Source: Escherichia coli (GTDB lineage Bacteria > Pseudomonadota > Gammaproteobacteria > Enterobacterales > Enterobacteriaceae). Taken from it: a stretch of DNA of 64,000 bases. Below the pieces are notes generated by a model. It was not told the origin of the DNA. It did not search any database and worked only from the letters and a program-made list of their open reading frames with translations. The DNA is taken from the NCBI RefSeq assembly GCF_003018235.1, contig NZ_CP027437.1, one strand, 5' to 3'. This document shows positions 25,079 to 36,535 of this stretch, piece by piece. The translations under genes and the position numbers were made by a program. Numbering within the stretch: position 1 is the first letter of the stretch; every line of letters begins with the position of its first letter.

Positions 25079-25354
25079 CTATCGCACAGGATGGATAAGA
25101 TAATTCGCCTTTGTCGGAAAAGGGGGCGGAATTTCTTCTGTGAGGTTTAATGGTGGCGCATCTTCTCTCATCTTAAACAAAATCGCCTGTGATGGCTGAA
25201 GTTTTGTAGAATGAGTTGTCGTCATCATTGACGTTTTTTCTGTCTCTTTATAGCTCGTCTCACTTCCACCACCAGAAATGGAAAATGCAAAAACATTGCA
25301 TGCCATAATAGAGACCAATAAAAATAAGCTAAAAAGCATTAAGTTTACTTTCAT
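25079..25354 (-). CDS. ypdI: small putative lipoprotein, 91 aa
   Basis: ORF track; signal peptide with lipobox-like IMAC; synteny. Confidence 0.7.
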   Translation of the reverse strand: MKVNLMLFSLFLLVSIMACNVFAFSISGGGSETSYKETEKTSMMTTTHSTKLQPSQAILFKMREDAPPLNLTEEIPPPFPTKANYLIHPVR

Positions 25355-25496
25355 AGAAAGTTATCCTGAAAATGGTTCACTGAAAACCTACGACGTTATT
25401 GCTGTATTTACATATAATTAATCAGTATTTACATCGATATAATAAATGACATCTCTTTTTGGTATATAAGAATAGTTCTCTGTGACAGGAAGCATA

Positions 25497-25514
25497 TTCC
25501 TACAATTGTAAGGC
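25497..25514. promoter_or_regulatory. EvgA-box candidate, TTCCTACA-AT-TGTAAGGC, upstream of yfdX
   Basis: 18-bp inverted repeat matching the EvgA consensus as I recall it (TTCYTACA-N2-TGTARGAA); about 135 bp upstream of yfdX. Confidence 0.55.
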
Positions 25515-25649
25515 TAAAATACTTCTTGCGATAATAACTACAACTGTAAGATAACCCTTTCAAAATGAGCGTTGCTCTCTGATTTCTCATTTCATGCTCA
25601 CCCAATATGATGGCGGCGTTTTCTAAAACTGTTAAAGAATGAGGTAAGT

Positions 25650-26282
25650 ATGAAACGTTTAATTATGGCTACGATGGTCACAGCAATTCTGGCATCTTCA
25701 ACTGTATGGGCGGCTGATAATGCACCGGTAGCGGCACAACAGCAAACTCAGCAAGTTCAGCAAACCCAGAAAACGGCAGCAGCAGAGCGTATCTCTGAAC
25801 AAGGTTTATATGCGATGCGTGACGTGCAGGTAGCGCGCCTGGCTCTGTTTCATGGCGATCCGGAAAAGGCAAAAGAACTGACCAATGAAGCTTCAGCTTT
25901 GTTGTCAGATGACAGTACCGAATGGGCAAAGTTCGCTAAGCCAGGTAAAAAGACCAATGTCAATGATGACCAATATATTGTCATTAATGCATCTATCGGA
26001 ATTTCTGAGAGTTATGTAGCGACACCCGAAAAAGAAGCCGCGATAAAAATTGCCAACGAAAAAATGGCGAAAGGGGATAAAAAGGGCGCAATGGAAGAGC
26101 TTCGCCTGGCCGGTGTTGGCGTAATGGAAAACCAATATCTGATGCCGCTCAAACAGACTCGTAATGCACTTGCTGATGCGCAGAAACTGCTTGATAAAAA
26201 GCAATACTACGAGGCAAACCTGGCGCTTAAAGGTGCGGAAGATGGAATCATCGTCGATAGCGAAGCACTGTTTGTGAACTAA
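25650..26282 (+). CDS. yfdX: periplasmic protein of the EvgA regulon, 210 aa
   Basis: ORF track; signal peptide; synteny. Confidence 0.8.
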
Positions 26283-26339
26283 CGCTGACAGGCAGTATAT
26301 TGAGGTAAAGGATTTAACTCCCTCCAGCCGACAATTTTT

Positions 26340-26370
26340 TATGACCACAATACGACAGATTGTGGTCATA
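26340..26370. repeat. perfect 12-bp-arm inverted repeat tatgaccacaat-N7-attgtggtcata between yfdX and frc (hairpin or operator)
   Basis: read directly; flanked by a T-run upstream and an A-run downstream. Confidence 0.5.
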
Positions 26371-26793
26371 AAATTATTTGGCGCTCGCGGTTCTATAAAC
26401 TCGCATTTTATCTTCCTCAAAGTAAACCGCAATAATCCCGTGTCATCACAAATCATTTATTATGTTATGTTTTATGGTACGCTTTAAAAATCGTAATCAT
26501 ACCCTTACTTGTAAATCACCGGCGCTTCTTACAGTTGTAAGAATAACATCACAAATGTCGCGGCTCTCTCTGATTACCGCGAACCAATATTTATCATATT
26601 CTTCTTTTCGTCCTCACTACTTACCATGCAGAAAGGAATTGGAAGTAGCGATGAAATGATTTTCAGTACTTGATACAGGAATTTAAAAATATCGAGTGCA
26701 GCTACGACGATATTTTGCGGATTATTTATAGAGGCGTTATGTCTTAAATAAACGCTAAATTAACACATATTTAATTAACTAATAGGTATTGCT

Positions 26794-32080: not shown

Positions 32081-35000
32081 TTAGTCATTTTGTTGACAGA
32101 AAACAGCTATCTCCTGGTCCAGCTCTGCAATGTGTTCTTTAACAGAGTTCAGCAGCTGAAGAATTTCAGGCTTACTGTCATCTGAAACAGGTGTTATTTC
32201 TAACTGATGGCTAAGATTAATCAACTTTTGCAAATTCAGGATGTTAGCTGCACCGTGGATGCGATGAATACACTGATGGAAAGTTCTGTTGTCGCCAGCT
32301 TCTAGTGCATGAAACGCAGCGGGTAGATCTTTATGCGTTTCATGCTGGAAAGTCATGAGAATCTCCTGCATCAGTTGTAGATCGTTCGCCGTATTATTTT
32401 TCAGGGCCTCGATATCAAGGTGGCGATACTGAGGTGCAATAGGCGCAACCTGGTGTAACTGACTTAAATGTGTTTTCAGTACATCCAGGGTCAACGGTTT
32501 GAACAAACATAAGTTCATGCCGCAATTTAACCCTTTTTCACGTTCGTTAGCCTGTGCGTTGGCTGTAAGCCCCCAGATGGGTAAGGAAGAATTTTGCTCA
32601 CGGAGTTTGCGAGTCAACTCAAAACCATCCATATTCGGCATATTAACGTCAGTAATAAGCAGATCATAATGTTGCATACTGACTTTGTGTAGCGCTTGCA
32701 CACCATCAGTTGCTTCATCAACATCATATCCTAATAGGTTTAGCTGGCGTTTGAGTAATAGCCTGTTGGTCGGATGATCATCCGCGATTAATATGCTCAA
32801 CTTTTCAGGGAGTGTCATGGGTTGTTCTGCTTTTGCCTCGACAGTCGCCACTTGTTGGGTAATTTCTACCGGGATTGTGATCGTAAATGTCGTTCCTATG
32901 CCTGGATGACTTTCTAATGACAAATCGCCCTGCATGTTTTTAATTAATTCTTTGCAGATCATTAAGCCTAAACCAGAACCTGTTTGCTGACGACCTGCAC
33001 TTGTTTGGCTATAGCGTTTAAACAGTTGTTGTTGTTCTTCCTGTGATAATCCACTTCCAGAATCCATAATCGTCATTTTGATTACAGCGTGGTTGTCATC
33101 AATGTTAACCAGGGAGGTCGTAATTTTTACTGCCCCCTCGGTGGTAAATTTGAGAGCATTGCTCAGTAAATTAGATAAGACCTGCTTAAACGCCTGAGGG
33201 TCGATCTTAACCAGGTAATGTTCAGGAAACGTACTGCTGCAACTTAATGCGATCGATTTGCTTGCAGCAATCGCACCGAAAGAGTGACAAGTGTTCTGGA
33301 CTAAAGTAGGGATATCGACCCATTGTGGTTGAAGTTGATAGTTACCCGACTCAATTTTGTCGACATCAAGGATTTCACCAATTAAGCCGAGGAGTGATTG
33401 TCCGGTGGCGTAGGCAAGTGAAATCGCCTCCACCCGTTGTTCCTTGCTAAGACCAGAACCCGACAGAAGTTCCAGGAAGCCCATAATGGAGCTTATTGGT
33501 GTTCTTATTTCGTGACTCATTGTTGCCAGAAACTGACTTTTTGCGACAGTTGCATTGATCGCTTTATTTCTCTCTACTTCGAGAGCGTGAATTAAATCAC
33601 GCGTCTCGGTAATATCTTGCCAACCACAAATATAAACAGCATGATCGCTGGCTGGCAGATTGCATAATGTATGCCAGTGATTAATGCATCTTTTCTCGAT
33701 GCCATTATCAATTTCAAATACCTGTGTGTATATTGTTCGATTTTCTTTCGTTTCTGCTGTGACTTCATGCGCATTAGAAAAAACATCTTTAAAGGGTGAG
33801 TCACTGTTTTCTAATGGTAACATTGCATTTTTGTAGTAATCCGCAGTGAAATAATGTTCAAAAGCACTATTATGACTAATGACATTACCTTGCCAGTTTA
33901 CAACATAAGTTGGATTCGGTAAGGAATCCGAGAGTGCTTTTCGGAATGATATTTGGTTTTCTAAATCACCCTGAATGACTTTACGACGACGAACTGAGCG
34001 TAACAGGTAGAATCCCCATAAAAGGCTACTGCCAACTAATAAAACGGATAATGTCGTGACAATATAAAATTGCTCGCTATAGAGGTCCCATGTGTCAATG
34101 GTCACATTGGGCATTTTAATCCATTTTTCCGTCAGGCGCAGAACTTCGCTTGGGGGAATTGCATTCAGTGCTTTATTAATAATATCCTTAAGTTCCGGTT
34201 CTCCGCGAGGAAAAGCGAACGAAAGCGATGCATTCGGAACGCCGGGAATAAGAAAATGATAAAGTTCATTAGGATAGTAATGGTCGATCATGTAACGTGA
34301 ATTTAACTGTGTCGCGACCAGAGCATCAAGTTCGCCTTCCTTGACCTTGTGAAATGCAGCGCTGGCGTTATCGACTTTTATCCACTCTACCTCCGGATAC
34401 ATCTCTTTTAATTGCGAATGAAGCTCATAATAATAGGGAATGGCAACTTTCATTCCTTTTTTTAATGTTTGTTCACTGTCAGGCGCTTTTTGCATGACAA
34501 AAACGTAAGGCGTTGTTATGAAGGCTTCAGCAAATAAAACATTATTTTCTCTATCTTCACTATAAATAGCGGCGGGCAATATATCCCATCCACCGGGGTT
34601 AAGCTGTGTCCCCGCATGAATATTGTGTGAAACGGTGATCGGAGAAAAATTTAAACCTGTTTGCAAGGTAATAATATTAAGAATATCACCCATCACGCCC
34701 CGAACTGAGCCAGTTTCATCTGTCATAGAATAGGGTGGCGAGTAAGGATTTTCCAGCACCTTTAAATCGGGATGCTGCTTAATCCACTGTTTTTCATGTT
34801 CAGTGAGTTCTAATGGTTTGTTCAGAAAGGCCAGGTTTCCTGTATCAAGCCAATTTTGTGATACTTCATAGCGAACTTCATTTGTTAAAGCATCAACAAA
34901 TCGATTGAGTACTTCATTAAGAACGACTGAATCTTTTCTGGTTAAGAAAAAGTTATATTGACGCGGCGAGTTATAATATTTCACTACATTTAAGGAGTGA

Positions 35001-35674
35001 GTGAAATAGCGGGAAATCATACTGCTGGTAATAATGTTACTACCAATAAAGTAATCATTCTGTCCGGCTGAGACGGATGCTAATGCCTGATATAAATTTG
35101 TAAAAGAGATAATTGTTGCTTTTGGAAATGATTGATGAATTACCTCATCTGGAGGGTAATTTGCTACCCGAGCAATATTTACTGGTTTTGATGAGGTAAG
35201 CGGTCTCATTGAATCGTGAAGGGTGGTGACCAGCGCCGGAAAGGTAATTATCAGCGGTTTGGTTGCAGCAATGTCATCATTAAGAGGCGGCGAAGCAACT
35301 AAATGTGATAACACTATATCGACTTCCCCTTCTGTAAGCGCGTCCATTGCTTTTTGATGATCTGCGTATTCCCGGAGTGTTAATTTGATATTTAACGCTC
35401 TTTTTAAAAGATTTAAATAATCAGCATTAATACCACGAACCCGTTGCTGCGAATCGGTATGCAACAAAGTAGCTGTTTGGGACTTGTGTACTGCAATCAC
35501 AAGATTTTTTTTGCTCGCTAACCAACGTAATTCCTTGTTGCTCAGACGTAGTGGATCAAGCGTGACACGGTTGTTACTACTGATGCCACGATATTCGATG
35601 TAATCTTCGTCTGCGAAACTTATGGTCGACCAAAGACCACAACAGAGAAGAATAATATAGGGTAAAAACTTCAT
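32081..35674 (-). CDS. evgS: hybrid sensor histidine kinase with periplasmic binding domains, HisKA/HATPase, receiver and HPt, 1197 aa
   Basis: ORF track; domain order recognisable; synteny. Confidence 0.9.
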   Translation of the reverse strand: MKFLPYIILLCCGLWSTISFADEDYIEYRGISSNNRVTLDPLRLSNKELRWLASKKNLVIAVHKSQTATLLHTDSQQRVRGINADYLNLLKRALNIKLTLREYADHQKAMDALTEGEVDIVLSHLVASPPLNDDIAATKPLIITFPALVTTLHDSMRPLTSSKPVNIARVANYPPDEVIHQSFPKATIISFTNLYQALASVSAGQNDYFIGSNIITSSMISRYFTHSLNVVKYYNSPRQYNFFLTRKDSVVLNEVLNRFVDALTNEVRYEVSQNWLDTGNLAFLNKPLELTEHEKQWIKQHPDLKVLENPYSPPYSMTDETGSVRGVMGDILNIITLQTGLNFSPITVSHNIHAGTQLNPGGWDILPAAIYSEDRENNVLFAEAFITTPYVFVMQKAPDSEQTLKKGMKVAIPYYYELHSQLKEMYPEVEWIKVDNASAAFHKVKEGELDALVATQLNSRYMIDHYYPNELYHFLIPGVPNASLSFAFPRGEPELKDIINKALNAIPPSEVLRLTEKWIKMPNVTIDTWDLYSEQFYIVTTLSVLLVGSSLLWGFYLLRSVRRRKVIQGDLENQISFRKALSDSLPNPTYVVNWQGNVISHNSAFEHYFTADYYKNAMLPLENSDSPFKDVFSNAHEVTAETKENRTIYTQVFEIDNGIEKRCINHWHTLCNLPASDHAVYICGWQDITETRDLIHALEVERNKAINATVAKSQFLATMSHEIRTPISSIMGFLELLSGSGLSKEQRVEAISLAYATGQSLLGLIGEILDVDKIESGNYQLQPQWVDIPTLVQNTCHSFGAIAASKSIALSCSSTFPEHYLVKIDPQAFKQVLSNLLSNALKFTTEGAVKITTSLVNIDDNHAVIKMTIMDSGSGLSQEEQQQLFKRYSQTSAGRQQTGSGLGLMICKELIKNMQGDLSLESHPGIGTTFTITIPVEITQQVATVEAKAEQPMTLPEKLSILIADDHPTNRLLLKRQLNLLGYDVDEATDGVQALHKVSMQHYDLLITDVNMPNMDGFELTRKLREQNSSLPIWGLTANAQANEREKGLNCGMNLCLFKPLTLDVLKTHLSQLHQVAPIAPQYRHLDIEALKNNTANDLQLMQEILMTFQHETHKDLPAAFHALEAGDNRTFHQCIHRIHGAANILNLQKLINLSHQLEITPVSDDSKPEILQLLNSVKEHIAELDQEIAVFCQQND

Positions 35675-36517: not shown

Positions 36518-36535
36518 ATCCTACATGCGTAAGAA
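36518..36535. promoter_or_regulatory. EvgA-box candidate, aTCCTACA-TG-CGTAAGAA, in the evgA–emrK divergent region
   Basis: 18-bp imperfect inverted repeat resembling the yfdX box; lies between evgA and emrK. Confidence 0.5.

Follow-up and report, generated by a model that had tools for sequence, protein, structure and literature searches.

The window, that is, the whole stretch of 64,000 nucleotides of Escherichia coli DNA analysed here, carries the genes yfdX-frc-oxc-yfdV-yfdE in this order, next to which lie evgS and evgA, encoded on the other strand, and then emrK. Divergently oriented from yfdX lies ypdI (25079-25354, minus strand), a colanic-acid lipoprotein gene, and the 295-bp intergenic region between these two genes is present in 5411 of 5426 complete E. 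coli genomes. Within this region we studied an 18-bp site, here called box 1, which reads TTCCTACAATTGTAAGGC on the plus strand, lies 143 nt from the start codon of ypdI, and is followed 136 nt downstream by the ATG of yfdX (25650). Its placement upstream of yfdX as the first gene of the yfdX-frc-oxc-yfdV-yfdE cluster, as given in a previous reading made from the DNA letters (the sequence-only reading), is thus correct with respect to both position and gene order. The features discussed in the following are compiled in Table 1.

Table 1. Positions of EvgA boxes, promoter elements and genes within the window
Feature	Position	Strand	Basis or remark
EvgA box 1, TTCCTACA-AT-TGTAAGGC	25497..25514	.	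consensus scan, K-12 alignment, PWM, arm conservation
38-bp unit: box core CTACAATTGTAAGGC plus 23-nt spacer, between two near-identical 15-nt box cores	25500..25537		direct repeat, spacing 38
Substitution inside box 1, G (A in nearly all E. coli)	25513..25513		box position 17, away from consensus
Extended -10-like element TTGCGATAAT in the inter-box spacer	25526..25535	+	promoter scan, TG present
EvgA box 2, TAACTACA-AC-TGTAAGAT (= TAACTACAACTGTAAGAT)	25535..25552	.	scan, PWM, register; 3 mismatches, good promoter-proximal arm
Promoter-proximal element CTCTGATT	25577..25584	+	starts 25 nt after box 2 end (24 intervening nt)
Candidate yfdX core promoter TTCTCA-16-TATGAT	25584..25611	+	promoter scan, offset regularity
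yfdX coding sequence	25650..26282	+	210 aa
Intrinsic-terminator-like hairpin, 15-bp stem, then TTATTT	26337..26380	+	terminator scan, folding
Perfect EvgA box TTCTTACA-GT-TGTAAGAA, upstream of frc-oxc-yfdV-yfdE	26526..26543	.	0 mismatches
evgS, full length	32081-35674	-	97.74% identical to K-12
evgA, response regulator, 204 aa	35679..36293	-	100% identical to K-12 EvgA
EvgA box ATCCTACA-TG-CGTAAGAA, divergent evgA-emrK intergenic region	36518..36535	.	PWM 20.2 bits

Two further features of the ypdI-yfdX intergenic region lie on the ypdI side of box 1. At 25404-25443 there are two tandem 21-bp copies beginning GTATTTACAT, conserved throughout E. coli and picked up by TRF in other strains as well; they may be connected with the promoter of ypdI or with some other regulator. 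A short way upstream of box 1, the sequence TAAGAATAGTTCTC (25467-25480) is invariant in the aligned strains and resembles an RcsB/RcsAB box. Control of yfdX by RcsB has been described for Klebsiella (PMC6394985).

Considered as a bare inverted repeat, box 1 is not beyond chance. The sequence-only reading had described it as a near-perfect 18-bp inverted repeat, but no more than six of its nine position pairs are complementary, namely those of a perfect 10-bp core (TACAATTGTA) and one additional C-G pair. Within the window, 706 18-mers with at least six of nine complementary pairs were counted, against about 640 expected, and 58 18-mers have a perfect central 10-bp palindrome. The match of box 1 to the EvgA consensus, unlike the palindrome alone, does exceed chance. 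This consensus, taken here as TTCYTACA-N2-TGTARGAA (Masuda and Church 2003), is an 18-bp inverted repeat of 8-2-8 structure, and box 1 agrees with it at 14 of the 16 specified positions (left arm 8/8, right arm 6/8). With at most two mismatches allowed, a scan with the consensus TTCYTACANNTGTARGAA returned three matches in 64 kb where 0.06 would be expected, a number that was reached in none of 100 shuffled sequences. All three are intergenic and adjoin EvgA-regulated genes, i.e. yfdX, frc and evgA/emrK. Raising the limit to three mismatches added one fourth match in the window, at 25535-25552, which is located 38 bp downstream of box 1 and is referred to as box 2.

This consensus was checked on K-12 loci, where matches with at most two mismatches were found upstream of emrK/evgA, frc, yfdX, safA, ydeP and yegR. 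The promoters of all these genes are among those given as EvgA-bound in a review (PMC8147483). No consensus match with up to three mismatches was found in the K-12 gadE upstream region, although gadE has been reported as EvgA-bound. A match with two mismatches inside the K-12 mdtE coding region (TTCTTACGCATGAAAGAA; locus L011, 5887-5904) was considered as an EvgA site and taken as probably due to chance. A motif scan with an EvgA matrix, which the sequence-only reading had named as a check, placed box 1 third in the window. The position weight matrix (PWM) was trained on five K-12 sites other than yfdX which had themselves been found with this same consensus, so that the ranking is partly circular: the four highest-scoring among about 64,000 positions of the window are the frc box with 24.7 bits, the evgA/emrK box with 20.2, box 1 with 14.8 and box 2 with 14.6 bits, followed after a clear gap by a fifth-best position with 10.65 bits.

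Box 1 occupies the position orthologous to the yfdX site of K-12 (MG1655), TTCCTACAATTGTAAGAC, with which it shares 17 of 18 bases, and the flanking sequences are 98-99% identical. The two loci have the position, the 18-bp box, box 2, the core promoter and a 100% identical EvgA in common and differ by one base (25513) in the right arm of box 1, which is TGTAAGAC in K-12 and TGTAAGGC in the window. Among about 5411 E. coli genomes, at least 5316, belonging to three haplotypes of 4096, 904 and 316 genomes, show no change in the arms of box 1. Within box 1 these haplotypes differ solely at the central position 10 (T/C), whereas the spacer just downstream differs between them at up to six positions. 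Box 2 (AC/GT) and the evgA/emrK box (TG/GG) likewise vary in the two central nucleotides only, the central NN being the sole difference of the evgA/emrK box to its K-12 orthologue. A divergent GTDB E. coli representative retains box 1 exactly, its arms included. On this comparison, constrained arms together with a freely varying centre and spacer are a good phylogenetic footprint for box 1.

Regulation of yfdX by EvgA has been described before. According to the legend to Fig. 2 of PMC3720670, which cites Masuda and Church (2003), EvgA binds inverted repeats upstream of yfdX and yfdWUVE, and binding of EvgA to the yfdX and frc promoter regions is given in PMC8147483. A PyfdX-yfp fusion serves as the standard EvgA reporter and was stated to be 'directly activated by phosphorylated EvgA', with an 8- to 60-fold acid induction outside phylogroup B2 (PMC5706723); yfdX as an EvgA-induced gene and PyfdX as a reporter of EvgA activity also appear in PMC8067161 and PMC3720670. 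These published data on binding and on direct activation of PyfdX and the frc promoter pertain to the K-12 allele. The identification of the repeat as an EvgA box by the sequence-only reading is therefore borne out by orthology, consensus match, conserved arms and published PyfdX activation; box 1 is the already described K-12 EvgA operator of yfdX, and its regulation is already known and nothing new.

In order to compare the architecture of EvgA promoters, box 1 and nine other sites were aligned at their boxes in the direction of transcription. In seven of the nine other sites, a -10-like hexamer was found 53-54 nt after the end of the box, namely at yfdX box 2, emrK, safA, yegR, frc, the Buttiauxella yfdX promoter and Yersinia frc; the exceptions are ydeP (+48) and the evgA side of the evgA/emrK box. 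At box 2 the hexamer starts 54 nt past the box end. Box 1 showed neither a -10-like hexamer 53-54 nt downstream nor a proximal element in this alignment, the regularity of which was itself inferred in the present analysis. The proximal element CTCTGATT, which follows box 2, is also found after the frc box (26568-26575) and after the Buttiauxella box, and GTCCTATT-like elements occur at the same offset in the K-12 safA, ydeP and yegR promoters. These elements may represent an extra EvgA half-site overlapping the -35 region. Box 2 is conserved in every E. coli genome sampled, its left arm carrying an A at the otherwise invariant C3.

Transcription of yfdX is tentatively assigned to the TTCTCA-16-TATGAT promoter, the -10 hexamer of which is located at 25606-25611 in a region that is invariant among the aligned strains. 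The predicted start lies about 7 nt further on, near 25618, which would place the centre of box 2 near -74.5 and that of box 1 near -112.5. Coordinates of the yfdX site or a transcription start site were not found in the CsrA/EvgA papers, the SELEX promoter papers or the Reg-Seq preprint. The distance of 38 bp corresponds to about 3.6 helical turns, so that box 1 and box 2 would lie on different faces of the helix. Taken over all aligned sites, the regularity suggests a common layout of EvgA promoters with the box centre near -74.5 and a proximal half-site-like element. The spacer between the two boxes holds a possible alternative promoter overlapping box 1, which is composed of TTGTAA (25506-25511), an 18-nt spacer and TTGCGATAAT. 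The E. coli haplotypes, the GTDB representative of E. coli and the homologue from Yersinia vastinensis all keep the latter element, while the remainder of the spacer diverges.

Downstream of yfdX, a hairpin (26337-26373) that starts 55 nt past the stop codon separates yfdX from frc. It folds with -25.8 kcal/mol (z = -7.83), and none of 200 shuffled sequences folded as well. The hairpin fits the pattern of a Rho-independent terminator, but its T tract is interrupted and the stem contains only four G-C pairs. The sole Rfam match was a sub-threshold microRNA model on the hairpin, which was taken as chance. Beyond the hairpin, frc-oxc-yfdV-yfdE is preceded by an EvgA box of its own, which is identical in K-12 and outscores every other window position in the PWM. 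Behind it come CTCTGATT and two -10-like hexamers, TATCAT (26592-26597) and TATTCT (26597-26602). About 250 nt lie between this box and the frc start codon, implying an frc leader of about 190-200 nt. With the same 8-2-8 palindrome, the CTCTGATT element and a similar -10 offset, the frc box looks homologous to box 2 of yfdX. The two promoters differ in that frc has a single perfect box and a long leader, whereas yfdX has two boxes which are both imperfect. In agreement with this, yfdX and yfdWUVE have been described as separately induced units (PMC3720670). Because a terminator-like hairpin follows yfdX and frc has its own perfect box, the box at yfdX gives weak and indirect support to control of the oxalate genes by EvgA. 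The conclusion of the sequence-only reading that EvgA controls the oxalate/formyl-CoA genes can be retained, but the evidence has to be exchanged, the relevant element being the frc box and not the box at yfdX.

Judged by length and identity, the genes for both EvgS and EvgA are intact in this strain. EvgS carries 27 substitutions compared to K-12, about half of them in the N-terminal periplasmic region. Its identity to K-12 is close to the value of EDL933 and above that of B2 strains with acid-unresponsive EvgS (PMC5706723, Table 1); natural EvgS variants are known to differ in acid responsiveness, and some of them do not respond (PMC5706723).

Copy numbers of the 38-bp unit were counted with junction-specific 30-mers across 5426 complete E. 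coli genomes. The window represents the common two-box state. The junction of an extra unit, indicating at least three boxes, was detected in 414 of the 5426 genomes (strain 503440 and 413 others), and strain IBS28 has 3.4 copies with a period of 38 and 98% matches, which corresponds to four boxes. In strain A10 one unit is lost and a single hybrid box, TTCCTACAACTGTAAGAC, remains, a state found in one genome of 5426. We rejected an origin of the two boxes by recent tandem duplication, as box 2 is not followed by a second copy of the 23-nt spacer and the stretch preceding box 1 is unlike this spacer. The one-, three- and four-box alleles are more readily accounted for if the two cores of the common two-box state recombined. 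A third copy of D1, the direct repeat with spacing 38 (25623-25639, 76% identity), was treated as chance. In strain ETEC6 (locus L021, 452-700), a remnant of an IS5-family element of about 250 bp lies between box 1 and box 2; it has terminal inverted repeats GGCTTTGTTGAATAAAT... and is flanked by duplicated GATAATAAC. No description of a box copy-number polymorphism was found in the searchable literature.

Outside of E. coli, a scan of species-representative genomes for YfdX yielded nine loci, from E. coli, Yersinia vastinensis, six Buttiauxella and one contaminant-like fragment; no Escherichia species other than E. coli was among them. In Y. vastinensis IP38594 the yfdX-frc cluster is located next to arsB/arsC and YfdX is 83% identical to that of E. 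coli. The promoter there is homologous, with degenerate yfdX boxes and an frc box with one mismatch, and the cluster as a whole suggests horizontal transfer. In Buttiauxella, yfdX lies between hdeD/hdeB and a gene for an EvgS-like hybrid kinase, an arrangement resembled by the kvhAS-yfdX-hdeDB cluster of Klebsiella (PMC6394985). Its promoter holds an 18-bp palindrome at the position of box 2, TTCTGACA-TA-TGTAAGAC or TCTGACA-AG-TGTCAGA, which precedes CTCTGATT by 22-24 nt and the -10-like hexamer by 54 nt, as at yfdX box 2. The differences to E. coli are a G for T at half-site position 5 (TCTGACA-NN-TGTCAGA or TTCTGACATATGTAAGAC), the presence of one box only and the neighbouring genes. Since the yfdX promoters of Yersinia and Buttiauxella have homologous or related sites, a palindromic operator at this promoter position predates the two-box arrangement of E. 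coli.

A comparable arrangement is known from Bordetella promoters such as fha, where BvgA, a NarL/FixJ-type regulator, acts on inverted TTTCCTA-like half-sites and where an upstream repeat of high affinity is joined by weaker sites extending downstream toward the -35 region. Box 1, box 2 and the proximal half-site-like element at yfdX resemble these BvgA sites. The organism and the details of the consensus are different, and cooperativity of multiple dimers at yfdX would be an extrapolation from the arrangement of sites. EvgA owes its name to this homologue, BvgA (PMC9496106).

Taking all lines of evidence together, the best overall explanation for box 1 is that of an operator in the promoter region of yfdX to which phosphorylated EvgA binds as a dimer and with high affinity, a reading to which we assign a probability of about 0.85. 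That box 1 might instead be a chance palindrome, or the operator of another regulator such as a LuxR/NarL-family protein or a ypdI regulator without relation to EvgA, would be in keeping with its unremarkable quality as a bare inverted repeat and with its location between two divergent genes, not far from the ypdI start codon. We regard this as highly improbable given the specific consensus match far above the expected 0.06, the presence of EvgA's own locus and of two further boxes in the window, the conserved arms next to a spacer that is free to vary, and the published direct activation of PyfdX by phosphorylated EvgA (PMC5706723, PMC3720670, PMC8147483). A separate question is whether the site functions in this particular strain; the sequence-only reading had taken the repeat to support EvgA control of the oxalate/formyl-CoA genes in it. 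The G at 25513 moves the box away from the consensus and is rare: it is the sole difference from the nearest relative XJ6.1 in 296 bp, and a 35-mer with the G allele was found in one of 5426 complete genomes (strain 266917_2), compared to 4096 of 5426 for the 35-mer with the A allele, the A being also present in the further haplotypes of 904 and 316 genomes. Whereas the common allele agrees with the consensus at 15/16 positions and scores 18.8 bits in the PWM, the G allele reaches 14/16 and 14.8 bits, a 4-bit penalty that is poorly estimated as a G at this position is without counterpart in the training sites. The second mismatch, the lower score and the A in essentially all other genomes, which suggests constraint, could be taken to mean that the change disables box 1 and that EvgA control of yfdX is lost or strongly reduced in this strain. 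This is unlikely in our view, as accepted sites have one arm that is degenerate at its two outermost positions (TGCC... at safA, AGCC... at ydeP, AT... at evgA/emrK), box 2 and the core promoter are intact, and 266917_2, the other natural isolate with the G allele, belongs to a different haplotype. Because accepted sites tolerate degeneracy at these outer positions, we expect the A-to-G change to weaken EvgA binding rather than to abolish it.

The division of labour between the two boxes is less clear-cut. It is a real, if tentative, possibility that box 2 and not box 1 activates yfdX, with box 1 being auxiliary, e.g. for occupancy or cooperative nucleation, or dispensable; this would refine the operator reading. 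The -10-like register common to seven of nine other sites and the element about 24 nt after the box that most aligned sites share are both lacking at box 1, the one box retained by A10 is a good one exactly at the position of box 2, and the single Buttiauxella box is found there as well. On the other hand, box 2 has its three mismatches, including the A at C3, box 1 is the better match with arms just as strongly conserved, and the single-box state of A10 is confined to that one genome. In another arrangement box 1 would be a class II-type site over the -35 element of TTGTAA(25506)-18-TGcGATAAT(25535), with a start near 25542 and box 2 just downstream. The extended -10 promoter scan gave 9/12 matches plus the TG for this candidate, and TTGCGATAAT is invariant across the E. 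coli haplotypes and the Yersinia homologue despite the diverging spacer. We consider such use improbable nonetheless, as the centre of box 1 would fall near -36.5, an uncommon place for an activator, safA, ydeP, frc and emrK show no corresponding -10 at that offset, the TTGCGATAAT element is absent from A10, and box 2, at +1 to +11, would presumably impede transcription.

For the operator reading of box 1, the following course of events can be proposed. Mild acid would activate EvgS and lead to phosphorylation of EvgA, dimers of which would then occupy box 1 and, probably in a cooperative manner, the weaker box 2. From the register of box 2, RNA polymerase would be recruited to the weak core promoter TTCTCA-16-TATGAT, and yfdX would be transcribed as a short unit ending at the hairpin. 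The frc-oxc-yfdV-yfdE genes would be turned on in parallel from their own perfect box.

As it has been known since 2002-2003 that EvgA controls yfdX and frc-oxc-yfdV-yfdE, the site has little value as a discovery. Mildly new are the rare substitution in box 1, the copy-number polymorphism of the 38-bp box unit and the common promoter layout inferred here. If confirmed, this layout could guide mechanistic work on the contact between EvgA and RNA polymerase. The polymorphism raises the somewhat doubtful idea that box 1 is part of a copy-variable 38-bp unit, ranging from one to at least four boxes by recombination between the cores, which together with rare point variants may tune the induction of yfdX between lineages. 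PyfdX is in any case not uniform in E. coli, with one to at least four boxes depending on the strain and with occasional point variants or an IS remnant. Such promoter variation is relevant to users of PyfdX reporters and to comparisons of the acid response between isolates, as those published so far credited EvgS alone.
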